DNA from: Gammaproteobacteria bacterium
Lineage (GTDB): Bacteria; Pseudomonadota; Gammaproteobacteria; CAKMZV01
Reading direction: 5' to 3'
Length of the DNA stretch: 64,000 nt
Assembly: GCA_965277625.1 (NCBI GenBank)
Contig: OZ255827.1
Location: 1,544,550-1,608,549, forward strand
The translations under genes and the position numbers were made by a program. The notes below the pieces were generated by a model. It was given only the letters and a program-made list of their open reading frames with translations. It had not been told where the DNA came from and ran no database searches. This document shows, in pieces, positions 11,946 through 29,864 of the stretch; the stretch's first letter is position 1; each line of letters opens with the position of its first letter.

Positions 11946-12719
11946 ATGACCTCTTTTAACACAGCAAAATACGAAGTACAACAACTGCTCAACAAGATCT
12001 CTAAGACGGTTGAAGATGATCTACGACTTGAAGCCATTGTTGAAAGTATTAAAGACTGGTCTGAAATTGAATCCATTGCTTCAATTGAGCAGTGGTTTAT
12101 TGAACAGCAGGAACAGTGTTCAATGGTTTTAGAAGACATTCCAATAACGGAATGTAGAGGATGGTCGCTGAACCCAAAAAGTGGATTCGTTGAGCACGAC
12201 AGTGGTGAATTTTTCTATGTCCAAGGCATACGAATAAAACACTCCAAAAGTCGTGAAGTGACAGAGGGATGGGATCAGCCTATGTTAACTCAAGTGGGTT
12301 ATAACGGTGGCATTGTCGGCGTCATCAGAACCAAAATAAACGAAATACCTTATTACCTTGTGCAAGCCAAAGCCGAACCAGGCAATCCAGATAAAGTTCA
12401 AATCAGCCCTGCCCTGCAAGCAACATTCAGTAATATCAAAAAATCTCATGGGGGCAGTAATCCGCTTTTTCATGAATATTTTGAATTCCCTGATCAAAAT
12501 AATGCCACAGTATTATTCAACCAGTGGATGTCTGAAGATGGTGGACGATTACATTTAAAATGTAACAGAGGGATGATCGTCGAAATACTTTCTGAGGCAA
12601 TAACAAGTTTAGAAATACCGCCTTCTTTTAAATGGCTTTCATTGTTCCAAATCAAACACCTCATAAAAAATAGCAGCTGGGTGAATCCTCACGTTAGAGG
12701 CATCATTTCTCACCTATAA
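11946..12719 (+). CDS. Single-domain NDP-hexose 2,3-dehydratase-like protein (putative)
   Basis: 257 aa. FFYVQGIRIKH...GWDQPMLTQ...GGIVGVI...YYLVQAKAEPGN resembles one repeat of the EvaA/TylX3 Hexose_dehydrat domain. Recognition is from memory of the family motif, so it is tentative. Confidence 0.4.
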   Translation: MTSFNTAKYEVQQLLNKISKTVEDDLRLEAIVESIKDWSEIESIASIEQWFIEQQEQCSMVLEDIPITECRGWSLNPKSGFVEHDSGEFFYVQGIRIKHSKSREVTEGWDQPMLTQVGYNGGIVGVIRTKINEIPYYLVQAKAEPGNPDKVQISPALQATFSNIKKSHGGSNPLFHEYFEFPDQNNATVLFNQWMSEDGGRLHLKCNRGMIVEILSEAITSLEIPPSFKWLSLFQIKHLIKNSSWVNPHVRGIISHL

Positions 12720-12731
12720 AGATACTCCATC

Positions 12732-13682
12732 ATGAATTTGGCAGTTTGGTCTATAGGCAGTCACGCGAGAAAAAATATTCTCCCTGCTGTCATAAAATCT
12801 AAAAAAGTCAATCTCAAAGGTTTATTGACTCGACACACAAAACTCGGTGAAGACCTCTGTGCGGATTATCAGTGTGTTCAATACTCGTCAGCCGAAGCTT
12901 TACTACAATCACCAGACATTGATATCATTCATATTTGTAGCCCAAACGGGATTCATTTTGAACAAGCAAAAGCTTGTATTGAGCATGGTAAACATATCAT
13001 TGTCGAAAAAAGAGCCTTTTCTACATTGGAACAGTCCTATGAAATTGCAAATCTTGCCAAAGCGCAAAAGGTTTTAGTATTTGAAGCATTTATGTATCAA
13101 TATCATGCCCAATTTAAGCAATTAAAAAAATTGCTGGCAGAAAAAAAATATGGTGCCATAAGATCCATTTACGCATCTTTTGGTTTTCCATACTTACCAA
13201 AAAATAGTGTTCGACATTCAAAGAAACTCGATGGTGGTGCCTTAGGTGATGCAGGTGTTTATCCCATTTCAGCAATCTTGGCTTTAATGGGAAATGATGT
13301 GGATTTGGTTTATTCGACGATGAATTTTGAAAAAGATTTTGAAGTTGATACCTCTGGCTTAGCGGTGTTTAAAAACAAAGGCCAAAAAGGCATTTGCCAA
13401 TGGATATTTGGAGGCAGTTATAAAAACGCCATTGAAATTTGGTGTGAAAATGGCCATATTTATGTCGATCGAGCCTTTTCCAAAACCGAACAATTCCCTA
13501 CAAGCCTCTCAATTCATCACAATGGCGAAATCATTGAAACCATAAACTCTGGAGAAGACAATCATTTTACAAACATGTACGATCATTGCTACGATTTAAT
13601 TAATGAAGAACAATATGAATCATCCATTGAATCGCTGATTTTACAATCTGAAATCGTAGAAAAAATTCGCTTAAAACAATGA
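12732..13682 (+). CDS. Gfo/Idh/MocA family oxidoreductase (candidate NDP-sugar ketoreductase, KijD10-like)
   Basis: 316 aa. N-terminal Rossmann fold and IHICSPNGIHFEQAKACIEHGKHIIVEK consensus (EKP-like motif). Confidence 0.75.
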   Translation: MNLAVWSIGSHARKNILPAVIKSKKVNLKGLLTRHTKLGEDLCADYQCVQYSSAEALLQSPDIDIIHICSPNGIHFEQAKACIEHGKHIIVEKRAFSTLEQSYEIANLAKAQKVLVFEAFMYQYHAQFKQLKKLLAEKKYGAIRSIYASFGFPYLPKNSVRHSKKLDGGALGDAGVYPISAILALMGNDVDLVYSTMNFEKDFEVDTSGLAVFKNKGQKGICQWIFGGSYKNAIEIWCENGHIYVDRAFSKTEQFPTSLSIHHNGEIIETINSGEDNHFTNMYDHCYDLINEEQYESSIESLILQSEIVEKIRLKQ

Positions 13683-14626
13683 TCAGTTTTGTTATTCCCG
13701 TTTATTTCACGTCTCCTTCAGAGTCTGGGTTGACAAAGTTGATCGACAGAATCACTGCGATTTGTGAACAAATAGATTCGTCTTTTGAAATCATTTTGGT
13801 GGACGATGCTTGCCCATCAAATTCTTGGGATCATATTCAGAAACTGTGTGTCAAAATGCCTGCCATAGTCAAAGGCATCAAACACAGTCGAAATTTTGGT
13901 CAACAAAATGCCATTACTACTGGACTTTCCATGAGTAGTGGTGAGTGGATGGTCGTTATGGATTGTGATTTTCAAGATGACCCTGAAGCCATCTTCGATC
14001 TCTGGGCAAAAAAAAATGAAGGCTTTGATTATGTTGTTATCTCACGTTTTAATCGTCAAGATTCATTTTTAAAAAAATCAACCTCTTATCTCTTTTGGCG
14101 ATTATTCTCATTTTTAACCAATACAACGCTAGATGGTTCTGTTGCAAACTATGGCATCTATAACCGTAAAGTCATCAATGCTTATTTATCTATCAATGAT
14201 CAAATAAAATCTTTTCCAGCCCACGTTAATTGGTTAGGATTCAATAGGGCAACCATAGAATATCAGCACCAACCGAGATTGAGCGGCAAATCATCTTATA
14301 GCATTGCCAAAATGTTCATATTAGCAACCAATACCATACTGAATTTTTCTGACAGACCCTTGTGGCTAATTGCACAAACAGGGCTTTGGATCTCTGCACT
14401 CAGCATATTGACCGCTTTGTGTTTTTTTATAGGCGCTTTATTGGACATATTTGTGGTTCAAGGCTGGGCGGGTATTATTGTGTCCATTTGGTTATTCTCA
14501 GGCTTAATCATTTTTTTACTTGGGATAATAGGACTCTACGTTTCCAAAACATTTGAGCAAACCAAAAACCGCCCCACAGCCATTATTTCAGAAAAAATTG
14601 GCTTTGAACGAGAAGAACTAAAATGA
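13679..14626 (+). CDS. GT2 polyprenyl-phosphate glycosyltransferase (ArnC/GtrB-like)
   Basis: 315 aa. ISFVIPVYF...ILVDDAC...NFGQQNA...VVMDCDFQDDP with two C-terminal transmembrane helices, the ArnC/GtrB architecture. Confidence 0.8.
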   Translation: MISFVIPVYFTSPSESGLTKLIDRITAICEQIDSSFEIILVDDACPSNSWDHIQKLCVKMPAIVKGIKHSRNFGQQNAITTGLSMSSGEWMVVMDCDFQDDPEAIFDLWAKKNEGFDYVVISRFNRQDSFLKKSTSYLFWRLFSFLTNTTLDGSVANYGIYNRKVINAYLSINDQIKSFPAHVNWLGFNRATIEYQHQPRLSGKSSYSIAKMFILATNTILNFSDRPLWLIAQTGLWISALSILTALCFFIGALLDIFVVQGWAGIIVSIWLFSGLIIFLLGIIGLYVSKTFEQTKNRPTAIISEKIGFEREELK

Positions 14627-14991
14627 ATTATTTATATATTTTAGGTTGTATAATCTTCACCGTTTATGGGCAGTTAATCATTAAACATAGACTGGCATCT
14701 CATCCACCCTTACCTGGTGATTTCTCTGAAAAGATGATTGCAGTCATCAAGTTGCTTTTTGACCCCTTTATTGCCTCAGGTCTATTTGCTGCATTCATAG
14801 CTGCGCTTCTGTGGATCGTTGCCCTCTCAAAATTTGAATTGAGCTTTGCTTATCCCATGATGAGTTTCTCTTTCGTGTTAGTCAGCATATTCTCGTTCTT
14901 ACTATTCAATGAGGTAATGAGCGTGTATAAAATTTTAGGATTAATACTAATCATGTCAGGTATTTTTATTCTGAATTTGCATGCTAAATGA
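14623..14991 (+). CDS. ArnE/ArnF-like (EamA/SMR-type) small 4-TM flippase subunit
   Basis: 122 aa. Alignable by eye to E. coli ArnF (IFTVYGQLIIKHRLASHPP vs IASVAQLSLGFAASHLPP; AYPMMSFSFVLVSI...IMSGIFIL). Confidence 0.6.
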   Translation: MNYLYILGCIIFTVYGQLIIKHRLASHPPLPGDFSEKMIAVIKLLFDPFIASGLFAAFIAALLWIVALSKFELSFAYPMMSFSFVLVSIFSFLLFNEVMSVYKILGLILIMSGIFILNLHAK

Positions 14992-16385
14992 GCATAACTT
15001 TTCCTTCTTTAACCGTTATTGATTGGGTACTAACTGCCCTCATATTAGCCATTATTTGTTGTGCCATTTATCTTTTTGGCAACTATTGCACCCACTGCAT
15101 TGATCAGGCTTGGACTGCATCTTTTGGTCTCAATTTTATTCAAAACCAAACCTATGTTGAAGACTTAACCTTTGCAAATTCTGCAGGAGATTTTCGTTTT
15201 TTTGGGATGACACTTGCATATGTCAATGGCAAGTTAGCATCAACATTTAGTACCCATCCCTACTTTTTTGCTTTAATTTCAACTTGTTTTACACTGCTTT
15301 CCAACGTTTTTTGGTATTTTGGTTTTAAACGATTATTTAATCGAAACATCGCTTTATTTACAACCTTATGCCTGTTTATTGCCACCACAAGTTTTGGTGT
15401 TAGCCAAATTAATCGTCCTGAAGCGCTTTTGTTTCTTCTCTGCTCAGTCAGCTTCTGTTGTGCCAGTTATCGCTATTATTTCATTGCGGCGATTTTAGCA
15501 GGCATTTGTATTGAAATTCATCCCATGGGGTTCATCTGCTTCATTTATTTGACTGGCGTATTACTCATTTCTGATGATCGTAAGCATATTAAACATTGGT
15601 TGGCTATAGGGATTGCTGGTTTGATTGGACTGGGGTATTTTCTGCTCCTTCATCATCCCTATTTAGAACTTTATCAAACTATTTTAAGTCAAGCACGAGG
15701 TGCAAATTTTATTCAAAATAATTTCATTTTGGCTTATTTTTTTGATGTCAGATATTTTAAAAATGTCCCCGAAGCCTTTCTTTTAATTGCGATGATTGTT
15801 GTCACACTAATCAAAAAAAATGCTTTCTCCAATACAGCTGTACGTCTTAGCCTATTATGGTTAATAGCCATTTTGTTGTTTTCCTTATTGATTGGCAGAG
15901 GCAATACGCAGTATGGTATTTATTTATTACCACCGCTATTCCTACTCTCTGTCGCACAACTTCATCAATGGAAGACGTTCAAACCGATCATTGTGCTAAT
16001 CGTTGTTTATTACTTACTGCAATATATGGCTTTAATTTATATTAATGGCCATTTTAGAATGCATCAATACCATAATCAAATCAATCAACACCTCCCAAAA
16101 AAGTCAGAGGGGACCATTTATTTAGGGCATTCTAATCACTGGTTTACATTTAATAACGACCCCGACCGCCAGTTTTACACCGTCCAAGAGAATGATTTAA
16201 AATTTCTTAAAAATCAAAGATTTATCTGGATTCGCGACAACATTTGGGAACCAATTAACGCCCAACCGACAACTGAATTTCAAAAGTTGGCTAAAAAATG
16301 TCCAATGAAATTGCTAAGCCATTTCGATTACGGTCGGCATTCAGTACGATTTGAGCAATATGATTGCCGTAAAATTGCACCTTAA
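14988..16385 (+). CDS. Polytopic membrane protein, putative GT-C glycosyltransferase (ArnT/Gtr-type-like)
   Basis: 465 aa with ~11 predicted TM helices, acidic residues in the first extracytoplasmic loop (YVEDL) and a ~90-aa soluble C-terminal tail. Gene position matches arnC-arnE/F-arnT or gtrB-gtrA-gtr(type) logic. Confidence 0.4.
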   Translation: MSITFPSLTVIDWVLTALILAIICCAIYLFGNYCTHCIDQAWTASFGLNFIQNQTYVEDLTFANSAGDFRFFGMTLAYVNGKLASTFSTHPYFFALISTCFTLLSNVFWYFGFKRLFNRNIALFTTLCLFIATTSFGVSQINRPEALLFLLCSVSFCCASYRYYFIAAILAGICIEIHPMGFICFIYLTGVLLISDDRKHIKHWLAIGIAGLIGLGYFLLLHHPYLELYQTILSQARGANFIQNNFILAYFFDVRYFKNVPEAFLLIAMIVVTLIKKNAFSNTAVRLSLLWLIAILLFSLLIGRGNTQYGIYLLPPLFLLSVAQLHQWKTFKPIIVLIVVYYLLQYMALIYINGHFRMHQYHNQINQHLPKKSEGTIYLGHSNHWFTFNNDPDRQFYTVQENDLKFLKNQRFIWIRDNIWEPINAQPTTEFQKLAKKCPMKLLSHFDYGRHSVRFEQYDCRKIAP

Positions 16386-16514
16386 ATTACCCTGCTGTCT
16401 TGAAAATTAAATAAAAAATAATCCACAACTGTGGGAAATTTTATAGAAAACGTAAATCTTATTGTAAAAAACCGCCTAAATAAATCATCCATAAACAATC
16501 TATTGAGAAAATAT

Positions 16515-17540
16515 ATGAATACCACTGACGCCGCTTTAACATCTAATACTCCGCCTTTACTAAACAAAATTTCATCAGTGATTGGGTTAATCGTGCCAAT
16601 CGCTAGCTTTTTTCTATTGTCAAAAACCTTAAGTCCCCCTGCATTATGGGTGATGATGGGTGTATTACTCGGATTGCCCAGTGGTTTGAGCTTATTCATG
16701 CCCCGTTTTAATAAATGGGCGCAACTCTCAAGTACCATTGCCCTCATTGCTATTGTTGTCATTGCATCTGCAGACTTATGGCATGCATTATTGAATCAAG
16801 TACAAGCCGATCTATCGTTTCAACTATTGAGTCTCATATTGGCTTTGCTCATTGCTGCTGTATTGCAATTAACGCAGTTGCTGTATAGTGTGACCGAAGA
16901 TGAAATGAAGGTTCACGATCTAACCGATAAGGCTTTAAGTGGTCCGTCATTGGTCATAAGTTTCAGCATTGGTCTGATTCTGACTTCTTTGATGCTATCT
17001 TGGATGCAGACGACGGAAATCGCGCTCATGTCCAGTATTTCTCCAAAATTTTTAACCCGCGGCGTTATCCCACCACTGACCCTCACCTTGTTTTTCTGGG
17101 GCGCCTTATTGTTATTCGGTAAATGGCTCAAAATGCTGATTCAAGTCAAGCATAGTGATAGTGCCCGTTCTCACTTCAACACAGCGCATCAAAAAACTGA
17201 CACTTCAGTTAAAAAACAAGATGAATTCTTTCAACTAATCTGGCAACAATTTGAGGCTTCTTACACCCTTCCTCGATACATCAATTGGGCCATTCCCATA
17301 CTTGGGTTTATTGGCACAGTTTTGGGCATTTCTCTTGCAACAGAGGGTTTGAGTGCCATATTGGCCAATAATGATTCAGAGTTTAATCAGTTGCTCGGTT
17401 CTGCTCTTTCCCCGCTCGGTATCGCCTTTGATACCACTTTAATTGCACTCTCATTATCAATTGCCTTGGCGTTTTCTCAAACCATACTTTATCGCTGGGA
17501 AGAAAAACAATTGCTCATTTTGGAAGAAAAACTTAAATAA
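16515..17540 (+). CDS. MotA/TolQ/ExbB-family proton channel protein
   Basis: C-terminal ILGFIGTVLGI...LGIAFDTTLIALSLSIA matches the ExbB/TolQ TM2-TM3 signature, with extra N-terminal TM helices. ATG at 16515 preferred over the GTG at 16431, which lies inside a promoter-like AT-rich palindrome. Confidence 0.6.
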   Translation: MNTTDAALTSNTPPLLNKISSVIGLIVPIASFFLLSKTLSPPALWVMMGVLLGLPSGLSLFMPRFNKWAQLSSTIALIAIVVIASADLWHALLNQVQADLSFQLLSLILALLIAAVLQLTQLLYSVTEDEMKVHDLTDKALSGPSLVISFSIGLILTSLMLSWMQTTEIALMSSISPKFLTRGVIPPLTLTLFFWGALLLFGKWLKMLIQVKHSDSARSHFNTAHQKTDTSVKKQDEFFQLIWQQFEASYTLPRYINWAIPILGFIGTVLGISLATEGLSAILANNDSEFNQLLGSALSPLGIAFDTTLIALSLSIALAFSQTILYRWEEKQLLILEEKLK

Positions 17541-17543
17541 TCC

Positions 17544-18095
17544 ATGCCCAAAAAGATCCATCGTAAAGGGAAAAGCCTGTTCAATAGTGGCGATATCGAT
17601 GCGCCTATGGTTGAGGTGTTCGGTGGTGCCTTGGCATTGTTGATCATCATTTTTATTTTAATCAATTTGATTGTGACGCAAGACATCCGCGCCATGTTGG
17701 ACCGTTCAACCGAAGACGCCAAATTTAAAGTGTCTTGGCAAAATGGCACCGAAGGTTTGGTGGTTATTTCCTACCCTGACAAGCTGCGCATCATTGAAAC
17801 CAATGAGAGTATCCCCCGCTCTAAAATATGCACACCCAATAACCCTTTCCTGCGCTACGTCGAGAACATCTATAACAATTCGCAGAATCAACAACTGATT
17901 TTTGCCATTTTAGACAATGGGGTGGAAACCATGGCCATTGCTCGCAATTGTATGCGCGCCCGCTGGGCTCAACGGGTCATCAATATTGGTTGGATTATTG
18001 CCAATCAAGACTTGCTGTCCACCGTTCGATTGCAGGATTTACCTGCGCGCATAAAGAAATCGTTAAACTTTAATAAACCACCAACAACGCAATGA
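17544..18095 (+). CDS. ExbD/TolR/MotB-like biopolymer transport protein
   Basis: 183 aa. Short cytoplasmic N-terminus, a single TM (FGGALALLIIIFILINLIV, like ExbD VMLVLLIIFMV), then a periplasmic domain. Confidence 0.5.
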   Translation: MPKKIHRKGKSLFNSGDIDAPMVEVFGGALALLIIIFILINLIVTQDIRAMLDRSTEDAKFKVSWQNGTEGLVVISYPDKLRIIETNESIPRSKICTPNNPFLRYVENIYNNSQNQQLIFAILDNGVETMAIARNCMRARWAQRVINIGWIIANQDLLSTVRLQDLPARIKKSLNFNKPPTTQ

Positions 18096-19882
18096 GTGAG
18101 CGTGTACAGCAACAGAATCAATCTAAATCATTTGGGTTGTTGGGCCAAAGTGGTGTGGCATTGGCTGATATTTTGGCAAACAGCGTTGCAGTGATTCTGA
18201 TCTTAATTGCCGTAACGCTCACCGTTCAACAAAAAAAAGCGCAAGATGAATTAGAACAAAATGCGGACATCACCACTATTTTAGCGAGACAGTTAGCAAC
18301 CAGCGTTGTGTTCAACGATTTGCCAACCAGCCCCCCTGCTCGATTACACGACTATCACTCATGCGAGATTCCGCATGACTGCAATCCCTATTTGTATCCG
18401 ATCATTGAAATGCACGATGGCTATATCCGTATTTTTAATAACAATACCAAAATTTATCGTAATGAACTGCTACGAAAAGAGAATGCCTTTGACTTATACA
18501 TCAAAAATTTACGTCCTGAAGAAATATTAAATTTGCGTTTAGACGTCTATTCTGTGAGTGAATACTACCTGACATTGGGCATTTTGAAAGAACATAATGC
18601 CAGTCCCAGACATTGGCACTACCTTGGTGAAAGTGTGCCACCATTGAAAAATCAAATACTTAATGAAGAACGCATTGCCGGACATCAACAAGACCAAAGT
18701 TCAGAAGGTTTGGATGAGGGTCAAAGCAACAGTGACAGTGAGGGCAGCAATGATTCAGAAAGTTCAAGCCGCTCAAACCAACAAAGCCAGGGTCAAACGC
18801 CTTCACAAATGCCCGAAGGAACCGAATTGGCCGATTCTGAATCTCGGCAGTCTCTGCAGTATGATAGCCTTCTGCCGCCAGCCGATGGCGGGGCATCCAA
18901 TGAAGTCTCTGAAAATGCCCAAGAACAACCTGGCGGACCAACTGAATCCGAATCGTCTCAAAGCAACAAAACTCCCACGACTTTATTTGAAGCCTTAACG
19001 GGTATGATGGCAGAATCTCAAGGCCTTACCCCTCCTGAGCAAAGTGGTCAAGGTTCATCGGGCAAACGATCGATGCGTGTTCACGTCCCCAATGCTGGAA
19101 AATCAACTGGAAACGAAGGCAAATCCTCCGACAGTGTTAATTTACCTGCCGATGAATATCACCGTGTTGTGATTGCCTACATTCTGACAATGCTTGAACA
19201 AGCACACATTCAAAAAACTTTGGCACTCCCTCAAGCGAGAGAATGGCTGGCGCAGCTCGCTCAAAGCCCAGAGAGCATCCAACAACTGCCCTTGTATCCG
19301 CTGATTGATTCATTAGCGATGATCTTTGATCATGGGCATGAAGCCCGATCTTCAACATTGCAAAAAACCGTTATTGACGCAAGCTTGAGAGATAATCAAC
19401 TGCAAATTCCCTATAACGTTGCCTACCCTGCACCTGTTATAAAAACCTATAACACCCCTGTTTGGTTAGACAAACTGACTCAAGCCCAAAACGTTCAACC
19501 AGCGTTGTTAATGCGACTGTATCCCAGTCTATTTAAAGGCGAAGTTTTAGAATTTCCCGAAGGTTATACGGTTATTGTCCATCCTGATGAAGCTGCTAGA
19601 ACCATTGCTCAATGGCGACCCATTGCTGTACTCGATGCCCAATTAAATGACATCAGTTTAGGATTTGTTTATGCCTCAATAGCCAATGAGCAACTGGTGA
19701 TTCACGCAGGCGAAAACCAATTGTTATTGAATAAATTTCCCATTTCAGATCCACAAATCAGTGCCAAAGACAACACCGAAATTCTCACGCCCATACTATG
19801 GCTGTTTGGATTATTTACCCTCTTGGTATTACTGTCAAGAATGCGTATTCGAACTCGACGAGAATCCCTCAAATCCATTTAG
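18092..19882 (+). CDS. ExbD/TolR-like protein with long acidic low-complexity extension and C-terminal TM anchor
   Basis: 596 aa. N-terminal ExbD-like TM (ADILANSVAVILILIAVTL), an ExbD-like domain, then ~200 aa of S/E/Q/D-rich low-complexity sequence, a C-terminal globular part and a terminal hydrophobic helix. Confidence 0.4.
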   Translation: MSERVQQQNQSKSFGLLGQSGVALADILANSVAVILILIAVTLTVQQKKAQDELEQNADITTILARQLATSVVFNDLPTSPPARLHDYHSCEIPHDCNPYLYPIIEMHDGYIRIFNNNTKIYRNELLRKENAFDLYIKNLRPEEILNLRLDVYSVSEYYLTLGILKEHNASPRHWHYLGESVPPLKNQILNEERIAGHQQDQSSEGLDEGQSNSDSEGSNDSESSSRSNQQSQGQTPSQMPEGTELADSESRQSLQYDSLLPPADGGASNEVSENAQEQPGGPTESESSQSNKTPTTLFEALTGMMAESQGLTPPEQSGQGSSGKRSMRVHVPNAGKSTGNEGKSSDSVNLPADEYHRVVIAYILTMLEQAHIQKTLALPQAREWLAQLAQSPESIQQLPLYPLIDSLAMIFDHGHEARSSTLQKTVIDASLRDNQLQIPYNVAYPAPVIKTYNTPVWLDKLTQAQNVQPALLMRLYPSLFKGEVLEFPEGYTVIVHPDEAARTIAQWRPIAVLDAQLNDISLGFVYASIANEQLVIHAGENQLLLNKFPISDPQISAKDNTEILTPILWLFGLFTLLVLLSRMRIRTRRESLKSI

Positions 19883-19884
19883 CC

Positions 19885-21447
19885 ATGAGCCAAAATCGCG
19901 TCATTGCCCTCATTCTGTTTATTGTCATTACTTTGGCATTAGTCTGGTGGCGTTGGGTTTATTTGTCCCCGCAGCAACTCGATTTAGTCACCGTTGTTGA
20001 AACAGACCAACCGGCTGTCGTCAGCCCCATGGATGAGGTTCTCAAAAAGCATATCAACTTGCTGACCCATACCCAGACTTTATTGCAGCAATTTAAACGC
20101 CCCAGTGAATCCATCACTTTAAAACCGCTGTGGATTGACCGTTGTGAGGTTACGCAAAGAGACTTTCGCCAATTTGCCACTTGGCGAGCGGCTCAGGTCA
20201 TTCCGCCAAATGCCCATCCAGCAACCCCCCAGCGATGGGCGTATAAAAGTCAATCAGAAAATCATCGCATACTCGGACAACTGAGCATGCCTGCAGGTGG
20301 ATTAAGTTATTTAGATGGTTGGGCGTATTGCCATGCTGCTGGCGGTCGCTTACCAAGCAGTCAGGAGTTTGAAGCAATCAGTGCAGGCAAGGAACAACGT
20401 TTATATCCTTGGGGCAATACACTGGTTGACGATGCTTGGCCCTATAAGGACCCTTCTTTGAACGTTGCCCAAGTGTGCGGTTCGCATCCAGCAACTGATA
20501 CACCCGAAGGCATCCATGATTTAGGCAACAATGTTTTAGAATGGACGACAAACAACGACCAAGCTGTGTTGATGGGTGGCAATGCCTACCATCGCCCTTT
20601 GGCATTAAATGCCATCAACCTTATCAGGCGTTCAGCACCTGTGGATTTTCGTTCGCAATACACAGGTTTTCGTTGCGTCTATGACCGAACCCAACAAGCC
20701 AATTTAGATTCGCTGCCTTTGCCGTGGGGGAGCCAGCCAAAAATTGCCAGTATAGATGCTTCAACATTGACAATCGGTCCACCCAAATCTGCTAAAATTC
20801 CCGCATTATTATTGCATTTAAAGGATGATCAACTCAAATCGATCCAAAACTTTTCCATCATCCCGACACGCTTAAATTTAAAAGTGATGCGTTATGAAGT
20901 CACGGTGGCATCGTACACTAAATTCTTACGCGACCCATTGGTGCGATTCGGTTTTTATAATCACCCACAACAACCCGTCAACATGGCCCATGATCCCGTC
21001 CGATGGGACACACAGCAACAAAATCCAAGTCATCCTGTGACCAACATCACGTGGTGGAATGCCTGGTCATTTGCCAAATGGGTGGGCGGGCGACTGCCAA
21101 CAGCCCCTGAATGGACGGCGCTTGCGGGCGCACATTCCACGCGTTTCCCCTATGGAAACCAATACCAACCCCTAGCCTCTGTGGACAGAAATCGCATAGA
21201 CAGCCAATGGCAATCCTTAGAAGTCATCGCCTCAAATGATGACAGCAAACACGCAATCAAAGGTTTTGCTGGTAATGTTGCCGAATGGACCAGCACATCG
21301 CTATTGCGCGGCAATGCTTTTACCTTGGTCATCAAGGGTGGCAGTTTCTTCATGCCTGAAGAAGGCGGAGAAATCGGTCAAAGTGGCGAAGCACCGCCAA
21401 ATTATAAAAATGCAGACTTGGGTTTCCGGGTGGTTTTTCCGAATTAG
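19885..21447 (+). CDS. Membrane-anchored tandem FGE-sulfatase (SUMF1/EgtB/GldK-like) domain protein
   Basis: Starts 3 nt after the upstream stop. N-terminal TM, then two FGE-like repeats (GGRLPSSQEFE...YPWGN...GNNVLEWT...GFRCVYD and GGRLPTAPEWT...GNVAEWT...GFRVVF). No paired catalytic cysteines seen near the C-terminus of either repeat. Confidence 0.7.
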   Translation: MSQNRVIALILFIVITLALVWWRWVYLSPQQLDLVTVVETDQPAVVSPMDEVLKKHINLLTHTQTLLQQFKRPSESITLKPLWIDRCEVTQRDFRQFATWRAAQVIPPNAHPATPQRWAYKSQSENHRILGQLSMPAGGLSYLDGWAYCHAAGGRLPSSQEFEAISAGKEQRLYPWGNTLVDDAWPYKDPSLNVAQVCGSHPATDTPEGIHDLGNNVLEWTTNNDQAVLMGGNAYHRPLALNAINLIRRSAPVDFRSQYTGFRCVYDRTQQANLDSLPLPWGSQPKIASIDASTLTIGPPKSAKIPALLLHLKDDQLKSIQNFSIIPTRLNLKVMRYEVTVASYTKFLRDPLVRFGFYNHPQQPVNMAHDPVRWDTQQQNPSHPVTNITWWNAWSFAKWVGGRLPTAPEWTALAGAHSTRFPYGNQYQPLASVDRNRIDSQWQSLEVIASNDDSKHAIKGFAGNVAEWTSTSLLRGNAFTLVIKGGSFFMPEEGGEIGQSGEAPPNYKNADLGFRVVFPN

Positions 21448-23091: not shown

Positions 23092-24663
23092 ATGAGTGAA
23101 CCTCACAAAATACTCATTTTAGATTTTGGGTCGCAATTTACCCAACTCATCGCTCGACGCATTCGAGAAATTGGCACCTATTGCGAAATTTATGCCTGCG
23201 ATACAAACATCAAAGCCATCAAAGCATTTCGCCCAAAAGGTATCATTCTCTCAGGTGGGCCCAATTCAACTTATGCTGAGAACGCCCCTCAGGCAACAGC
23301 GGAACTATTTGAGCTTAACATCCCCATTCTTGGCATCTGCTATGGCATGCAATGGATCGCGCAGCATTTTGGCGGCACTGTTCAAAAGAGTGCCAAGCAC
23401 GAATACGGATATGCCCAAGTAAGAGCGCATGGACACACGCCTCTGTTGAATGACATACAAGACAACATTAATGAGCTGGGGCATGGATTATTAGATGTTT
23501 GGATGAGCCACGGCGATCAAGTGAGCACTCTACCAGAATCCTTTATCCGCATGAACTCTACGCCCAACTGCCCTATTGCAGGTATGGCAAATGTCGCTGC
23601 CCAAATTTATGCCATTCAATTCCACCCAGAGGTCACCCACACCACTCAAGGACAAGCCATCTTAAGCCGATTTGTATCAGGCATATGTCAGTGCGACAAT
23701 CAATGGGTTGCCAATAATATCATTGATGAAGCCGTGGCTTCAATTCAACAACAAGTGGGTCAAGCAGGCAATGTTTTGTTGGCCTTATCTGGTGGGGTTG
23801 ATTCTTCTGTCTGCGCATTACTACTCCATCGCGCCATTGGCAATCGTTTACACTGTGTTTTTGTCGATAATGGCTTATTACGACTGAATGAAGGCGATGA
23901 AGTCATGGCGCTTTTTTCGGATAAATTAGGACTAAACGTCCTAAGAATCAATGCCCAAGACCAATTTTTTAGAGCGTTGAAGGACGTTGACGAACCCGAG
24001 GAAAAACGTAAAATCATCGGCAATCAATTCATTAAAGTGTTTGAACAACAAGCTGCAATACGACCCAATATAGACTGGCTAGCACAAGGCACGATTTATC
24101 CTGATGTCATTGAGTCCGCCGCCGCCAAACATGGCAAAGCCAAGGTCATTAAATCACACCACAATGTGGGCGGATTACCCAGCACCATGAAACTTAAACT
24201 GATTGAGCCATTGCGAGCCTTATTCAAAGACGAAGTTCGCAAAATTGGTTTAATGCTGGGTTTGAACACCCAGCTGCTCCATCGTCACCCCTTCCCAGGT
24301 CCAGGTTTGGGCGTCCGTATTTTGGGACAAGTGACCGAGGAATATGCCCGCATTCTGCGCCAAGGGGATGCCATTTTCATTGAGGAATTGCGCCGTGCAG
24401 ATTGGTACGATAAAGTTTCACAAGCCTTTGTGGTATTCCTTCCGGTCAAAACCGTAGGCGTGGTCGGTGATGCACGTCGTTACGGATATGTATTAGCATT
24501 GCGCGCCGTTCAAACCCCCGATTTCATGACGGCCAAGTGGGCAGACTTACCAACCACAATGCTCAGCACCGTGTCGAACCGCATCATTAACGAAGTGCCC
24601 GAGATTTCACGTGTGGTTTACGACATCTCTGGCAAACCACCTGCCACCATTGAATGGGAATAG
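23092..24663 (+). CDS. guaA: GMP synthase (glutamine-hydrolysing)
   Basis: 523 aa. GATase (GICYGMQ) plus ATP-PPase SGGVDSSV P-loop. Confidence 0.95.
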
Positions 24664-25062
24664 TCAAATAATTGTAAGTACCTGATATATAAAGAATTGA
24701 GCGATTTAAATCGGTTAAAAATGCTCATTTAAAATTGTGGTTTTAACTTGTATTTCGTCTATAATATTAGATTGTAGGAAACATTAACATTTCAGTGGCT
24801 ATAACTTACTTTTTATCTTTAGTCTCTCAAGGCGTAATAAGGAATCACAGCAACTATTTCCGAAAATGGAAACAAGCATGCAAGTAAATTTGCCCAGATT
24901 TTTTCGTTTGAATCACATGCTGAAATGAAAATGAAATTTAATCGAGCGTAAATAGTTGAATAATGAACGAATGATCCATTAAATAAAATAAACGTCCATC
25001 TAAAGCCTTTGCATTAAAGCTGGAATGCGAAAAGGTGCGAAGATAAAAAGTAGGAAAAAACA

Positions 25063-25341
25063 GTGAATATTGAACAAGCTAAAAAAATCATTATCCAAGC
25101 CATTTCAGAGACACTCCAAGGTAAGGCTGAAGTGACTGAAGAAATGCAGCTGATTGGTGGTGAATCCTTACTTGACTCTATGAAGTTAGTCGAAGTATGT
25201 CTTTTATTGGAAGACTTGGCTGACGACCATGGATTTGAGTTTGATTGGACTTCAGAAGCTGCCATGTCAAAATCTCGCAGTATGTTCCGCAGCGTTGCCA
25301 CGCTCGCTGAAGAATTCGCTCATCAATCAGTGTCATCATGA
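25063..25341 (+). CDS. Acyl carrier protein-like
   Basis: 92 aa. GGESLLDSMKLVE phosphopantetheine-site-like motif. GTG start after AGGAAA. Confidence 0.6.
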   Translation: MNIEQAKKIIIQAISETLQGKAEVTEEMQLIGGESLLDSMKLVEVCLLLEDLADDHGFEFDWTSEAAMSKSRSMFRSVATLAEEFAHQSVSS

Positions 25342-26015
25342 TCATTGTGACTGGCGCCAGTCGAGGGCTGGGTAAGGCAATTTCTGAACGCCTAGTTGAT
25401 AATGGTGAGAAAGTTATTGGTATAGCGAGATCGATTGAAGATGTTGAATTTGAAGCCGTACAATGTGATGTCAGTTGCTACGTATCAGTAAAGAATGCTG
25501 TGCGTAAGGTAAAGCAGATGAATACGCCAGTAAAGGCATTCATAAATGCGGCCGGTGTAGCCTCAATGAATTTGGCTTTGACCACTGATGAATCAACCGT
25601 TCAGAAACTCATTCAAACAAACCTGGTTGGAACAATCTATTGCTGTCAATTATTTGCCCCACTAATGTTGCGACAAAAACAGGGATGTTTTATTAATTTT
25701 TCCACGATTGCTGTTGCGCTTGCCCTAAAAGGTGAATCTGTTTACGCGGCATCTAAAGCAGGGGTTGAAGTCTTTTCGCGCACCTTTGCACGAGAAGTGG
25801 CAGATTTTAATGTTCGTGTAAATTGTATCGCGCCAGGGCCGATCCGAACTGACTTACTGAGGGGTATTACAGACGCACAGATTGATAAAATCACATCTCA
25901 ACAAGTTATGCCTAAACAATTCCAAAAGTCAGATGTGTGCGACCTTGTGGAACTATTACTTGATGAGAAAGCATCTTCATTGAGTGGGCAGGTGCTCAAT
26001 GTTGGTGGCGTTTAA
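25338..26015 (+). CDS. SDR family oxidoreductase (FabG-like 3-oxoacyl-ACP reductase candidate)
   Basis: 225 aa. TGASRGLG, NAAG and YAASK catalytic motifs. Confidence 0.8.
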   Translation: MIIVTGASRGLGKAISERLVDNGEKVIGIARSIEDVEFEAVQCDVSCYVSVKNAVRKVKQMNTPVKAFINAAGVASMNLALTTDESTVQKLIQTNLVGTIYCCQLFAPLMLRQKQGCFINFSTIAVALALKGESVYAASKAGVEVFSRTFAREVADFNVRVNCIAPGPIRTDLLRGITDAQIDKITSQQVMPKQFQKSDVCDLVELLLDEKASSLSGQVLNVGGV

Positions 26016-27310
26016 TGGACATTTTAGAACAGTTAAAAGAACGCTGGAAGGGTATTGATTACCCTTTTTTGGTGCACGCCACAGGTGAGTTACGTTTTAA
26101 TGAAATAACGGCGCTAGACTCAGTCGATCTCTCTGAAGTAAAAAGTGGCGATGTTGTGGCACTAATTGGTGATTTCGATCCCCAATCCATACTAACACTA
26201 TTGCAACTCATTGACAAAAACGTCATCCTCGTCCCATTAACGACTGATACTAAATCGCAACACTCATACTTTTTTGATGCGGCATTGATAGACGTTGTGA
26301 TTGAAGGTGACTCTGTACAGCGATTAAACCATCATCGGAAACATCCATTCATTGAGCAACTGAGAGCGCAACAACATGGGGGATTAGTTCTATTTTCAAC
26401 TGGAACAACGGGTCGTCCTAAAGCGATTTTACATGACTTAACTTTATTCATGCAAAGATTCGAAACGGTTCGCCCAACGCTGAAAACAATCAATTTTTTG
26501 CTTTTTGATCACATTGGTGGTTTAAATACTTTGCTTCACACACTGTTTAACAAAGGCACTGTGGTCGCACCCAAGTCCCGTCGTGTTGAAGATATCTTAA
26601 CAACGTGTGCAGAACATAACATAGAAGTGCTACCAACGACACCAACATTTCTTCGAATGATGCTAATGAGTGGGCTCATACCAAATAATTTCCCCAAATC
26701 TCTACGCATCATTAGCTATGGAACTGAGCGAATGGATCAGCCCACATTAGATGCCCTTTGTGAATTATTACCGAATGTCGATTTTAGACAAACCTTTGGT
26801 ATGTCTGAGTTGGGTATTGTTCGTGTAAAAAGTGAATCTCGCAGCAGTTTGTTTATGCAAATTGGAGGTGAGGGCGTGGAGACGAGGGTCGTTGATCAGG
26901 TATTAGAAATACGTTCTCAAACTAGAATGCTGGGTTATCTAAATGCTGATAGTCCTTTTGATGAAACAGGTTGGTATAACACAAAAGACATTGTGGAAGT
27001 GCGTGATGGATTCTACAAAGTGACCGGTCGAACTACAGAGGTCATCAATGTTGGTGGGCTTAAGTTTATGGCCTCTGAGGTTGAAAGAATCGCACTACAA
27101 TTCAAAGGGGTAGAATTGGCCAAAGCGGAAGGCAAACCAAATCCAATAACAGGGCAGCATGTTGAACTCATTGTGCAATCGGCGCCAAATGCTGAGGTGG
27201 ATAAGAACGCGTTAAAGGATTACTTAAGTGCGCAATTACCAATGCACATGTTACCAAAACGCCTAAGAGTGTCCCAAGTGGCGGTTGGCCATCGGTTTAA
27301 AAGGCAATAA
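26015..27310 (+). CDS. ANL-superfamily adenylate-forming enzyme (PaaK/LuxE-like acyl-CoA or acyl-ACP ligase)
   Basis: 431 aa. FSTGTTGRPKAILH AMP-binding P-loop. The size fits the short PaaK/F390-synthetase-type ligases. Confidence 0.65.
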   Translation: MDILEQLKERWKGIDYPFLVHATGELRFNEITALDSVDLSEVKSGDVVALIGDFDPQSILTLLQLIDKNVILVPLTTDTKSQHSYFFDAALIDVVIEGDSVQRLNHHRKHPFIEQLRAQQHGGLVLFSTGTTGRPKAILHDLTLFMQRFETVRPTLKTINFLLFDHIGGLNTLLHTLFNKGTVVAPKSRRVEDILTTCAEHNIEVLPTTPTFLRMMLMSGLIPNNFPKSLRIISYGTERMDQPTLDALCELLPNVDFRQTFGMSELGIVRVKSESRSSLFMQIGGEGVETRVVDQVLEIRSQTRMLGYLNADSPFDETGWYNTKDIVEVRDGFYKVTGRTTEVINVGGLKFMASEVERIALQFKGVELAKAEGKPNPITGQHVELIVQSAPNAEVDKNALKDYLSAQLPMHMLPKRLRVSQVAVGHRFKRQ

Positions 27311-27312
27311 AT

Positions 27313-28269
27313 ATGAAAATAAAAGATCATTTTTTAATACTCCCATCGACCAGTCTCGATGTTAGCCAAATACTCATTGATTCAGGGGCCAGCAGCGAAG
27401 ATGCTTTGAAAACAATAGGCATAACGGGCATCTCGAGTATTCGTTACGCCCATCCAAAGTTGTTGACAGAGTTTGTTTTTGATGGTTTGACAATGATTGA
27501 TAAAAACCACGATCAAATCTTCGCAAATGTTGATGCAATAATTGTTGTGTCGCAGTCATACGATCAAAGAATTCCTTCTATAAGTACTCGAATTCAAAGC
27601 AAGTTTCATATTCGCTCAGATGCGTTCTGTATCGATGTTATGGATGGCTGCTCTGGTTACATCAAAGCACTCAGTTTGGCGTCAATGTTAGAACAAAGCG
27701 GCTTTAAAAAAATTCTTATCATCGCTGGCGATTTAAATTCCATGATGACTGCTAAAGCGGACACTGGGACTAAAATTCTATTTGGCGACGGCATTTCAAT
27801 TTCCATCCTTGAAGCCGATGAATCGGAATTGGATACACGAATTTATAATAACGGGGACCAAGATAGTGTCATTTCATGTTCGACCAGCGAAAATTTGATG
27901 ACCATGAATGGTTTTGAAGTGTTTAGATTTACGCGGAATGTGGTGCCTTCAATGATCAACTCGTACCTCAATGATTGCGGGCAATCGCTAGAAAATTATG
28001 AGCTTGTCGCCCTTCATCAAGCCAGTAAACTTGTTGTATCATCTATATGTGCTTCGCTTAAATATAAAAACACTTTATGCGACGATTATTCTTGTGGAAC
28101 CATCGGAAATCTCGGCGCTGGCAGTATTGGCGCTTGGTTATCTGAAATTAAGGATCTTGATAAAAAAGGCCCTTTGAAAATGTTAGCGGTTGGGTTTGGT
28201 TCAGGTCTTTCGTGGGGGTTAGCGTCTGCTATAATTGATATTCAAAGAAATGAGGTGATCTATGTCTAA
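27313..28269 (+). CDS. 3-oxoacyl-ACP synthase III (FabH-like)
   Basis: 318 aa. Cys-His-Asn triad contexts (DVMDGCSGYIKAL; ALHQASK; IGNLGAGSIG) in the FabH order. Confidence 0.7.
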   Translation: MKIKDHFLILPSTSLDVSQILIDSGASSEDALKTIGITGISSIRYAHPKLLTEFVFDGLTMIDKNHDQIFANVDAIIVVSQSYDQRIPSISTRIQSKFHIRSDAFCIDVMDGCSGYIKALSLASMLEQSGFKKILIIAGDLNSMMTAKADTGTKILFGDGISISILEADESELDTRIYNNGDQDSVISCSTSENLMTMNGFEVFRFTRNVVPSMINSYLNDCGQSLENYELVALHQASKLVVSSICASLKYKNTLCDDYSCGTIGNLGAGSIGAWLSEIKDLDKKGPLKMLAVGFGSGLSWGLASAIIDIQRNEVIYV

Positions 28270-28492
28270 AGTAAGTTTTAAGGATTTTTCAAGTAGTTTT
28301 GCAGAGGAGCTTAACATCGATCGTGCGCTTGATCCTACAACCCAATTAAAGGACTTAACTGAATTCGACAGTGCTGGTAAAATTTATATAAGCCTCATCA
28401 TTGAAGAGCTTTTTGGCTTCCAGATAGAGCATAAAATACTCAATGAGTGCGAGTCTTTAAAAGATCTATATGACTACTGCTGCAAGCAATAA
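28262..28492 (+). CDS. Acyl carrier protein-like (second)
   Basis: 76 aa. LTEFDSAGKIYISLIIEELF with a DS motif in helix II. Confidence 0.5.
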   Translation: MSKVSFKDFSSSFAEELNIDRALDPTTQLKDLTEFDSAGKIYISLIIEELFGFQIEHKILNECESLKDLYDYCCKQ

Positions 28493-28504
28493 TATGGTGC
28501 GTAT

Positions 28505-29035
28505 ATGATTCAAGCATCCCTGAGAAGTATTGCGCTTGATGATATACAACTTTTGCGCTTTTGGAGAAATCTTGATCATGTAAGGCGTCAAATGATTTTG
28601 ACGAGATACATTGACAGAAATGAGCAACGTCATTGGTTTGAGACATCAAATGAAAACTTGGTGCGCTATTTCATTTACTCACTCGATACGCATGATGTGG
28701 GATGTGCCAATCTTCTCAATATAAATCAAACCGAGAAATCATTTGAAGGTGGTATTTTTTGTGGCGATACCACTTACCTAAATCACTGGGTCAATATTTG
28801 GGCTTGTATTAAGATTTACGACTACGGCTTTTTTGAGCTTGGTTTGGAGAAATCATTCGCTAAAGTATTGAAGGATAATTTACCGGCATTAAAATTAAAT
28901 AAGTCTTTGGGCTATCAATTTATCAAAGATATTGATCAAAACATCGGCTGGTATGTATTGACCCGAGATGATTACATTCAATCAACAGTGAAAATAAAAC
29001 GATACTTACGCGAATTCGCAAAACAAACTTTGTGA
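28505..29035 (+). CDS. GNAT family N-acyltransferase (PseH-like)
   Basis: 176 aa. N-terminal LRFWRNLDHVRRQM resembles PseH FKWRNHPDINQFM, within a GNAT-like fold pattern. Confidence 0.5.
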   Translation: MIQASLRSIALDDIQLLRFWRNLDHVRRQMILTRYIDRNEQRHWFETSNENLVRYFIYSLDTHDVGCANLLNINQTEKSFEGGIFCGDTTYLNHWVNIWACIKIYDYGFFELGLEKSFAKVLKDNLPALKLNKSLGYQFIKDIDQNIGWYVLTRDDYIQSTVKIKRYLREFAKQTL

Positions 29036-29396
29036 TTAGCTTTTATGTATGATGCGACATTATTTTGCCCTATGATGGACTGAATGGTCGATTGAATAAC
29101 CACTTAAGAAAACGTCGTCGTTTTGACATTCAGTATGCATCAAAGCATTCATTTCAAGGCGTCTTGGCCGATAATTGGGTCATACGAGATGACGCGTGCG
29201 ATAAAGATACTTCGTACAGTAATAATCGCTTTTTAAATCTTTTTCTTTATGGGTCGATTTTAATTCCCTTCTTTTATAAATAAATCTGGGAAAAGCAATG
29301 AATTCATGAACAAGATTGCATTGTTATTTTCCCGTCATTCAAGGATAATGAGCCCGTACTATAGGTACATATACTTACCATTACAATTATTTAGCC

Positions 29397-29864
29397 ATGC
29401 AACACCACCAATCGCTTGTTTTAAATCAGCAACTGCCCAAAGGCAGCCGAGTTGGCATTGTTTGGTCGCGTTTTAATGAAGCATTAACATCGTCTTTAAA
29501 AGACCACGCACTCAGGACGCTCATCGAAGCAGGTGCTGAGGCAGATTCAGTCATCATTCAAGCGGTTCCTGGTTCAGCAGAATTGCCCCTGTCTTGTCAA
29601 AAATTGCTTAAAAACCATGATTTAGATGGGGTTATTGCCATAGGCGTGGTGATAAAAGGAGAAACGCTGCATTTTGAATATGTTTGTAACATGACCGCCT
29701 ATGGCATTATGCAAGTGCAATTAGCCTGTGAAAAACCCATTGCTTTTTGTGTCCTCACCACCCAATCTTACGAGCAAGCCTTAGCAAGAGCTGGGACGCA
29801 TAACAATAAGGGAGAAGAAGCAGCCATAACGTTGGTTGAATTGCTACAACCCACTGCCTCATAA
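29397..29864 (+). CDS. ribH: 6,7-dimethyl-8-ribityllumazine synthase
   Basis: 155 aa. VGIVWSRFN...VPGSAELP...IAIGVVIKGETLHFEYV. Confidence 0.9.
   Translation: MQHHQSLVLNQQLPKGSRVGIVWSRFNEALTSSLKDHALRTLIEAGAEADSVIIQAVPGSAELPLSCQKLLKNHDLDGVIAIGVVIKGETLHFEYVCNMTAYGIMQVQLACEKPIAFCVLTTQSYEQALARAGTHNNKGEEAAITLVELLQPTAS

Follow-up and report, generated by a model that had tools for sequence, protein, structure and literature searches.

What does a small set of fatty-acid-synthase-like genes with its own carrier proteins do when it sits directly behind the gene for GMP synthase? The question is raised by a 64,000-nucleotide stretch of contig OZ255827.1 from a Gammaproteobacteria bacterium (GTDB lineage CAKMZV01; GenBank assembly GCA_965277625.1, positions 1,544,550 to 1,608,549 of the forward strand), which we refer to as the window and whose own numbering is used here. 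Six open reading frames (ORFs) on the plus strand at 25063–29035, overlapping or nearly abutting and just after guaA, encode in order a divergent acyl carrier protein (ACP1), a short-chain dehydrogenase/reductase (SDR), an ANL adenylate-forming ligase, a type III 3-ketoacyl-ACP synthase (KASIII), a second carrier protein (ACP2) and a GCN5-related N-acetyltransferase (GNAT). We propose that this cassette is a horizontally acquired operon providing both acyl donor and transferase, and that its probable role is to attach a short hydroxyacyl group to the amino group of a nucleotide-linked 4-amino-4,6-dideoxyhexose. We found no description of this six-gene cassette in the literature.

Organization and constraint of the cassette

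The guaA gene (23092–24663, plus strand), whose Pfam domains GATase and GMP_synt_C were seen in the sister locus, is followed by an AT-rich spacer (24664–25062, 30% GC); its 3′ end is both the anchor of the cassette and the hotspot discussed below. The ACP1 gene (25063–25341, 92 aa, GTG start) overlaps the SDR gene (25338–26015, 225 aa) by 4 nt, which in turn overlaps the ligase gene (26015–27310, 431 aa) by 1 nt. After a 2-nt gap comes the KASIII gene (27313–28269, 318 aa), overlapping that of ACP2 (28262–28492, 76 aa) by 8 nt, and the GNAT gene (28505–29035, 176 aa) follows 12 nt further on. This pattern of junctions is that predicted for a single translationally coupled operon. A scan for promoters and terminators found nothing better than in shuffled sequences, the spacer at 24664–25062 having no convincing promoter, and an Rfam scan of 24500–29500 gave no match.

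Comparison with a 95%-identical sister genome shows that all six cassette genes are under purifying selection. The ratio of nonsynonymous to synonymous substitution rates (dN/dS) is 0–0.18 for the cassette and 0.05–0.11 for guaA, ribH and nusB; cassette dS (0.11–0.31) matches that of these three genes, and dN of ACP1 is 0. The low dN/dS, together with dS equal to that of the flanking core genes, indicates that the cassette works and that its inheritance has been vertical from the divergence of the two lineages onward.

Predicted functions of the six proteins

Pfam and NCBIfam assign five of the six proteins, the exception being ACP1, and the gene inventory offered in an initial annotation of this DNA, made from the sequence alone, is borne out. 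ACP1 matches no Pfam or NCBIfam family. Its Asp38-Ser39 pair is invariant across 21 homologues, and all 35 matches of the family profile in the PDB are acyl, D-alanyl or peptidyl carrier proteins, in which the phosphopantetheine serine aligns with this pair, at weak E-values (0.017–1.5); Ser39 is thus the presumed attachment site. ACP2 matches PP-binding with 23.8 bits (E = 5e-5), above the Pfam cut-off of 20.8, and its Asp36-Ser37 is invariant across 26 homologues, with Ser37 the presumed phosphopantetheine site of what would be the carrier of malonyl extender and product. The two carriers are not the outcome of a recent duplication, since hhalign relates their families with a probability of just 2%. 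One Chloroflexi locus (L008; L-numbers denote the homologous loci described below) has two tandem ACP2-like ORFs, at 10920–11189 and 11295–11546, between KASIII and GNAT.

The second protein has an SDR fold (adh_short, 5e-43) with the TGxxxGxG and YxxxK motifs, and is FabG-like, though its 154.7 bits with NCBIfam FabG (TIGR01830) fall short of the cut-off of 297.75. The compact ligase matches PF00501 (AMP-binding) with 64.7 bits (E = 9e-18), above the cut-off of 29.9, and carries the motifs STGTTGRPK, YGTE and GRxxE..VGG.K with an invariant Lys429, so that the ANL motif set is complete. It had been labelled PaaK/LuxE-like, and this label is not supported: AMP-binding is the sole Pfam family listed for it at E ≤ 0.01, LuxE being absent, and its closest NCBIfam and PDB relatives are FadD-type enzymes, MenE and FadD10. 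By these matches it is a generic ANL enzyme (FadD/MenE-like), presumably an acyl-ACP1 ligase.

KASIII matches ACP_syn_III (1e-11) and ACP_syn_III_C (3e-6). The intact Cys-His-Asn triad noted initially is confirmed, as Cys113, His235 and Asn266 show no variation among 24 family members and coincide in alignments with the catalytic residues in the GCSG, HQA and GN motifs of solved FabH structures. Scores are well below the FabH cut-offs (NF006829, 119.8 versus 249 bits; TIGR00747, 102.4 versus 292), and this is a KASIII-fold enzyme distinct from the housekeeping FabH. Its homologues are a family of 318-aa proteins found chiefly in aquatic metagenomes; the assembly index holds no record of the exact KASIII product.

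The GNAT (Acetyltransf_3, 2e-8) scores 62.7 bits with NCBIfam PseH (TIGR03585; E = 4e-17), below the cut-off of 93.1, and its best PDB matches are FdhC (3e-8) and PseH (1e-5). A profile of its family matches PseH (1.5e-13), FdhC (4.9e-13) and SpeG (5.7e-13). FdhC is a 3-hydroxybutanoyl transferase acting on dTDP-Fuc3N (PMC4869667), and the window protein is a presumed PseH/FdhC-type transferase that would act from acyl-ACP to a sugar 4-amino group. Since the equivalog cut-offs of FabG, FabH and PseH are all missed, the cassette enzymes are specialized paralogues, distinct from the core fatty-acid and pseudaminic-acid enzymes.

Recurrence and modularity

Scans of genome and metagenome collections gave 51 distinct homologous loci, whose ORFs were labelled by phmmer against the six window proteins; only five came from the genome collection, and the distribution statistics rest mainly on metagenome contigs. 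ACP1-SDR-ligase (hereafter the trio) lies directly upstream of KASIII in 22 of the 30 loci with that flank visible, ACP2 is directly downstream of KASIII in 36 of 40, and a homologous GNAT is the next gene in 26 of 40. The full six-gene order is present in 12 of the 27 loci with both flanks visible, from several phyla. As it recurs in at least 12 distinct loci, the gene order reflects a real module. The hosts include an unclassified gammaproteobacterial metagenome-assembled genome (MAG; the sister of the window, 96% identical), a Chloroflexi MAG, Rubripirellula, Vibrionaceae MAGs, SAR86 and Scalindua.

The module consists of two separable halves, the trio and KASIII-ACP2-transferase. Locus L041 has the order KASIII-ACP2-GNAT-ACP1-SDR-ligase, L017 has the trio inverted and downstream, and in L027 and L035/L077 KASIII-ACP2-GNAT occurs alone, without the trio. 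Four Scalindua-type loci (L004, L005, L006 and L021; three or four metagenome samples) have the ligase cut to a fragment of ~46 aa (at ~3565–4157 in L004) while ACP1, SDR, KASIII, ACP2 and transferase are intact. The terminal N-acyltransferase is interchangeable: in addition to the GNAT there are an AAC(3)-fold Antibiotic_NAT (five loci), a 208-aa weak GNAT with a left-handed beta-helix (LbH) protein (four loci), and others.

Two further variations were observed. A 148–163 aa protein without a Pfam family usually follows the cassette GNAT elsewhere (L078, 11732–12178; homologues in L009, L012, L015, L030, L032, L036 and L047) and is absent from the window, where a 72-aa ORF (29065–29283, plus strand, no Pfam match) and ribH stand in that place. 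Locus L083, a legionaminic-type locus (NeuB, NeuC-like), has at 4363–10296 ACP1, SDR, an 82-aa ORF, a PglD-like LbH protein, a 72-aa ORF, a second SDR, a 350-aa KASIII and a 431-aa ligase, a further combinatorial variant of the module parts.

A database search with the ligase shows that its family is far larger than that of KASIII. The best 120 relatives have lengths of 430–432 aa, with exactly 431 aa in 118 cases; 119 relatives are 79–85% identical to the window protein, the remaining one being the 97% identical copy of the sister lineage. They occur in Aurantiacibacter (Sphingomonadales), Amylibacter (Rhodobacterales), Litorivicinus (Oceanospirillales) and many metagenomes. Searches of plasmids returned only distant ligase homologues (35–42% identical) and FabH-like enzymes at ~27%; a small upstream ACP also precedes these plasmid ligases, one of which precedes a giant polyketide synthase (PKS). 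A scan of viral contigs for the ligase gave no match, and the cassette is therefore not evidently phage-borne.

Sugar contexts and the candidate acceptor

The commonest informative context of the homologous cassettes is a nonulosonic-acid (NulO) locus (L004, L078, L076, L020, L027, L035, L041 and L048), with NeuB, CTP_transf_3 and PseB/PseC-like genes and often an aldo-keto reductase, a class-III aminotransferase and DUF4910. Locus L078, which is of the PseB/PseC/PseF/PseI type, has no PseH-like gene other than the cassette GNAT. In the SAR86-type loci L002 and L038 the cassette is joined to FdtA and DegT, a 3-amino sugar pathway, and in three loci it stands beside WecE-type genes for dTDP-4-amino sugars. 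One of these, from Rubripirellula (L009), has the order RmlB, WecE-like, RmlA, cassette with GNAT, and then a family 2 glycosyltransferase (GT2) in the opposite orientation; a second (L053) reads wecB, wecC, a GT56 wecF-like gene, cassette with GNAT, and wecE-like; in the third (L054) WecE comes directly after the GNAT. In the enterobacterial common antigen cluster the GNAT gene wecD has an established position beside wecE, and it is this position that the cassette occupies in L053. Two cassettes are orphans in non-sugar contexts (L008 and L017). The common feature of the host pathways is a nucleotide-linked 4-amino-4,6-dideoxyhexose, and the contexts support a predicted role of the cassette in sugar N-acylation. 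With the proximity of the GNAT to FdhC and PseH, they also uphold the general idea of the initial annotation, a private-ACP mini fatty acid synthase feeding an amino-sugar N-acyltransferase.

Similarity among the GNATs does not single out one acceptor. Pairwise identities of GNAT and KASIII rise and fall together (r = 0.85), and in similarity clustering the GNATs from WecE contexts are interspersed with those from NulO contexts; the cassette thus moves as a unit between pathways, and an assignment of the acceptor from GNAT similarity was rejected on these grounds.

The window itself encodes one candidate acceptor pathway, an RmlA/WecE sugar island at 9754–16385 (plus strand; NCBIfam and Pfam assignments). 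It contains RmlA, a WecE-type 4-aminotransferase (10788–11936; 416.7 bits with the WecE equivalog, above the cut-off of 375), a 257-aa 2,3-dehydratase-like protein, a Gfo/Idh/MocA oxidoreductase, an ArnC-like GT2, an ArnE/F-like flippase and a PMT_2/ArnT-like GT-C enzyme. The aminotransferase is the only DegT-type match among the window ORFs in phmmer searches with single proteins from the homologous loci. NDP-hexose 2,3-dehydratases are ~470 aa proteins with two such domains, and the 257-aa protein has one only. This gene content suggests a 4-amino-(2,)6-deoxyhexose that would be delivered through undecaprenyl phosphate to lipid A, lipopolysaccharide (LPS) or protein. No N-acyltransferase, RmlB or deacylase is present within 9754–16385. 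Between the island and guaB lie four co-directional genes (16431–21447) that are conserved as a set in the sister genome; their products are a 369-aa protein with a weak MotA/ExbB-like C-terminus, 183- and 596-aa proteins of no family, and a 549-aa protein with a C-terminal FGE-sulfatase domain.

The dTDP-Fuc4N-type sugar of this island, itself without an N-acyltransferase, is our leading candidate for the acceptor, held at slightly under even confidence. A link between cassette and DegT island had been proposed initially; it is plausible and has precedents in L009, L053 and L054, but is unproven because NulO loci house most of the homologous cassettes and some cassettes are orphans. From the end of the nearest DegT gene to the start of the cassette is 13 kb, a distance that takes in guaBA and four unrelated genes.

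A pseudaminic-acid-type (NulO) precursor encoded outside the window is a less likely acceptor, with perhaps a chance in the lower third of the range. In the full form of this alternative, which we regard as rather unlikely, the cassette would act on UDP-4-amino-4,6-dideoxy-AltNAc or a relative from a Pse/Leg-type locus beyond the 64 kb, giving a 7-N-hydroxyacyl pseudaminic-type acid on flagellin, LPS or capsule, and the WecE island would be unrelated. It draws on the predominance of NeuB/CTP-transferase/PseB/PseC-type loci among the homologues, on the closest GNATs of known context (L012/L078 and L020; 64–65% identical), which are in such loci, and on L078, which offers no PseH candidate besides the cassette GNAT. 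Flagellin glycosylation islands of Aeromonas also have genes for an ACP, an SDR and an AMP-ligase next to pseH (PMC7874193). These have the same ACP-SDR-ligase order in a pseudaminic-acid locus, by annotation only, but continue with LuxE and LuxC, an aldehyde-forming route, whereas the window continues with KASIII and ACP2. Against a NulO acceptor, the phmmer searches with single proteins from homologous loci found no match to NeuB, PseB-like proteins or CTP_transf_3 among the window ORFs, and the downstream genes that were scanned are housekeeping genes. The GNAT is moreover below the PseH equivalog cut-off, and WecE-context cassettes do exist, scattered through the GNAT clustering.

Proposed pathway and acyl group

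In the pathway that we propose, the 431-aa ANL ligase would adenylate a free short carboxylic acid and load it onto holo-ACP1 at Ser39; that a small upstream ACP still accompanies the 35–42% identical plasmid ligases favours this step. KASIII (Cys113/His235/Asn266) would take this acyl primer and condense it decarboxylatively with malonyl-ACP2 (Ser37), the malonyl group coming from housekeeping FabD, to give a 3-oxoacyl-ACP2. The FabG-like SDR would reduce the keto group or groups, and the PseH/FdhC-like GNAT would move the hydroxyacyl group from the carrier to the sugar 4-amino group. No dehydratase or enoyl reductase was found among the module-adjacent proteins run through Pfam, and the six-gene order has no slot for either, which fits a chain ending at the 3-hydroxy stage.

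Since the trio works elsewhere with a transferase only, without KASIII, the SDR probably acts already on the ACP1-bound starter, converting for example acetoacetyl to 3-hydroxybutyryl. KASIII and ACP2 would then add one C2 extension, yielding a 3,5-dihydroxyhexanoyl-like product in place of plain 3-hydroxybutyryl. The initial annotation predicted a 3-hydroxybutyryl group (+86 Da), leaving aside the ligase and ACP1; as we read the gene set, these two imply a starter acid from outside the CoA pool, and the chain may be longer or doubly hydroxylated. Nature does provide a hydroxyacyl group lengthened by one more C2 unit: 3,5-dihydroxyhexanoyl is known on Qui2NAc4N in Flavobacterium psychrophilum, where the O-antigen genes wfpC-wfpG (KAS, ACP, ketoreductase and sugar N-acyltransferase) are predicted to assemble it on the 4-amino group (PMC6519341). 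The wfp set resembles the window in joining type-II-fatty-acid-synthase-like genes to a sugar N-acyltransferase; it differs in its two KAS enzymes, its one ACP, the lack of a ligase and the use of a PglD-type LbH transferase where the window has a GNAT, and its function is predicted only. A precedent for the ligase-ACP pairing is the dedicated ACP and acyl-CoA-synthetase-like pair of bacterial sphingolipid synthesis (PMC9386255), where, as would be the case here, an ANL enzyme and a specialized small ACP feed a downstream condensing or transfer enzyme; unlike the cassette, that pair serves another pathway and another acyl length, with no sugar acceptor.

The product could instead be plain 3-hydroxybutyryl made from acetyl-CoA and malonyl-ACP2, the ligase and ACP1 being accessory, for instance in salvage or in the loading of malonate or 3-hydroxybutyrate. 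The model for this is the viosamine island of Pseudomonas syringae pv. tabaci (vioA, vioM, vioT, vioS [KASIII], vioB, vioR [reductase] and acp; homologous orfB/C/D are in the P. aeruginosa PAK glycosylation island), which puts 3-hydroxybutanoyl on dTDP-4-amino-4,6-dideoxyglucose, as supported by genetic and mass spectrometric evidence (PMC3927599), and does so with only KASIII, a reductase, one ACP and a transferase. KASIII-ACP2-GNAT without the trio (L027, L035/L077), the deletion of the ligase in the Scalindua-type loci and the transfer of 3-hydroxybutanoyl by FdhC, the top structural relative of the GNAT, all favour this simpler product. We nevertheless consider it unlikely. The trio stands immediately before KASIII in 22 of 30 loci and is under strong purifying selection in the window, and no other part of the system is as well conserved; this last point speaks for a central and not an accessory role.

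A role outside glycans, in making an N-acyl polyamine, an N-acyl amino acid or a small polyketide-like metabolite, is improbable. It would account for the SpeG match of the GNAT family profile (5.7e-13, level with PseH and FdhC), for the orphan cassettes in L008, L017 and here, and for the distant ligase homologues that load PKS systems. The informative contexts are nonetheless amino-sugar loci, the alternative transferases are of sugar type too (PglD-like LbH proteins, and AAC(3)-fold Antibiotic_NAT beside NeuB and DegT), and in L053 the cassette has the wecD position.

Several observations weigh against N-acylation of a 4-amino-4,6-dideoxyhexose by a horizontally acquired operon. Every step of the mechanism is inferred. 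The ligase sequence alone does not give the substrate, and hence not the acyl group, and an AlphaFold2 model of the ligase from a 16-sequence alignment (predicted local distance difference test [pLDDT] 51, predicted template modelling score [pTM] 0.39) was too poor for a fold search. The loss of the ligase in Scalindua-type loci and the occurrence of KASIII-ACP2-GNAT alone elsewhere mean that the ligase/ACP1 route is not always required. The window cassette adjoins no sugar gene, the WecE island being ~9 kb off behind unrelated genes and guaBA, and the closest GNAT relatives are in NulO or orphan contexts, which makes the acceptor uncertain; the spermidine acetyltransferase SpeG is matched by the GNAT family profile as well as PseH and FdhC are. 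As to acquisition, repeat finding, a scan with a 24-nt probe and local alignment with shuffles revealed no att repeat around the window cassette beyond chance, and no integrase is present around it: the guaA-ribH interval otherwise holds only one plus-strand ORF of at least 60 aa (that of 72 aa), and so leaves no room for one.

Mobility and the guaA hotspot

The case for horizontal transfer rests on identity and location. ACP1 is 82% identical between the window and L082, and the SDR is 83% identical between the window and the Aurantiacibacter copy; the core trio is thus 82–83% identical between proteobacterial classes, whereas the GuaA proteins of the two hosts compared share only 50% identity. 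The GC content of the cassettes is 40–51%, against 47–66% for the host guaA, and GC at third codon positions (GC3) of the window cassette is 0.37 versus 0.41 ± 0.05 for other genes. In five lineages the trio lies directly downstream of guaA, namely the window and L079, L080, L081 and L082; the last four are four of the five long contigs examined, the fifth being the legionaminic-type locus L083. The trio in L079–L082 is accompanied by a variable transferase, which is a PglD-like LbH protein, a non-homologous GNAT or a protein of no known type (322 or 356 aa).

The 3′ end of guaA is a recognized hotspot for genomic islands such as ICERspD18B, and a GAGTGGGA core has been reported for guaA-targeting islands (PMC7775301). 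The displaced guaA 3′ end (…ATYGAGTGGGARTAR), which contains the GAGTGGGA core, recurs two or three times downstream in L080 and L082 (copies at 5951 and 15297 in L080 and at 11756, 13138 and 15307 in L082; the series of direct repeats also take in 4739 in L080 and 7706 in L082). These repeats delimit tandem islets of 1–9 kb, those set beside ICERspD18B measuring 4–9 kb and having no conjugation genes, and the first islet of L082 (~4 kb) consists of a four-gene cassette only; no integrase is present inside the L082 islets. In L081, integrase genes and transposases flank the cassette copy after guaA. The cargo of the L080 and L082 islets includes the ACP1-SDR-ligase cassette, methyltransferases and a FitA/PIN toxin-antitoxin pair.

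Directly before ACP1 in L080 (7876–8052) and L081 (7876–8058) is a 58–60 aa coiled-coil ORF (MKSYDELKAEME...GFTAGMLKG...) without a Pfam family. The window has a weak tblastn match to it (E = 1.7) in the syntenic position, at 25007–25063, which is possibly a decayed remnant. With no second repeat, no integrase and only this possible ORF remnant, the window copy is best read as an old, domesticated insertion at the guaA hotspot; it shares with ICERspD18B and the other guaA-3′-end islands (PMC7775301) its location directly after guaA, but without an integrase or a detectable second repeat. The cassette would accordingly have come by horizontal transfer into the guaA-downstream hotspot and now be stably inherited. 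That a mobile module is parked at this hotspot is an aspect missed by the initial annotation. Separately, a perfect 12-nt inverted repeat (AAATAATTGTAA / TTACAATTATTT) is present at 24666–24677 and 29381–29392, its arms bracketing the whole insert, one starting 3 nt past the guaA stop and the other ending 5 nt ahead of the ribH start. The repeat is AT-rich and may plausibly have arisen by chance within 5 kb.

A bolder and doubtful reading extends this picture. The trio might be a promiscuously mobile acyl-donor cartridge, delivered by small islets that target the guaA 3′ end and plugged, via a swappable transferase (GNAT, LbH or AAC(3)-fold), into the host's own 4-amino-dideoxyhexose pathway, with KASIII-ACP2 as an option giving a longer, doubly hydroxylated chain such as 3,5-dihydroxyhexanoyl. 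The core identity of at least 79% across Alpha- and Gammaproteobacteria is cited for it. At the other extreme, that the window cassette is an inert, decaying remnant of a guaA-targeting islet is hardly credible: no integrase or att repeat is left and the small upstream ORF is apparently degraded, but all six ORFs are intact with conserved catalytic residues, dN/dS is 0–0.18 and dS equals that of the flanking core genes.

Relation to known systems and significance

The initial annotation equated the cassette with the set found in the vio island. As an analogy of parts this is fair, because both encode together a KASIII, a 3-oxoacyl-ACP reductase, a private ACP and an N-acyltransferase; the equation does not extend to the whole, as vio has no adenylating ligase and only one ACP. 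The vio genes are also embedded with an aminotransferase and glycosyltransferase in a flagellin island, a linkage that the window cassette lacks and L009, L053 and L054 have. FdhC (PDB 5kta), PseH (PDB 4xpk) and WecD are, like the window GNAT, small N-acyltransferases of the GNAT fold, and their substrates are nucleotide-linked amino-dideoxyhexoses; these three work with acyl-CoA and without a private ACP, and the window GNAT is only distantly similar to them. In Acinetobacter baumannii, 3-hydroxybutanoyl decoration is achieved by variant transferases alone (PMC9676051). The Shewanella sfmABCDE operon is not this module: its genes encode a PseI-like protein, a thiamine pyrophosphate enzyme, a reductase, a methyltransferase and an ATP-grasp protein.

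New relative to vio and wfp are the ANL ligase, the two unrelated carriers, the GNAT transferase and the mobile plug-in lifestyle. New also are the 82–83% identity of the trio across classes and its position right behind guaA in five lineages.

N-acyl groups on amino sugars define epitopes of O-antigen, capsule and flagellin, as well as phage receptors. To our knowledge, genes supplying unusual acyl groups are known in a few cases only, and those cited here have never been reconstituted in vitro. The cassette extends the known scheme of KASIII, ketoreductase and ACP by an adenylating ligase and a second carrier, and it spans several phyla; its trio is among the most conserved and most mobile parts of marine surface-glycan loci and is located at a recognized integration hotspot. 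Its characterization would make acyl decorations predictable from metagenomes, would explain the spread of glycan diversity between distant taxa and would provide a compact enzymatic tool for putting hydroxyacyl groups on nucleotide sugars. If the trio is indeed a mobile acyl-donor cartridge, it would represent a previously uncharacterized priming route from ligase through ACP to KASIII, and marine bacteria would have the means for a one-step change of surface-glycan N-acyl chemistry, and hence of serotype and phage receptor.

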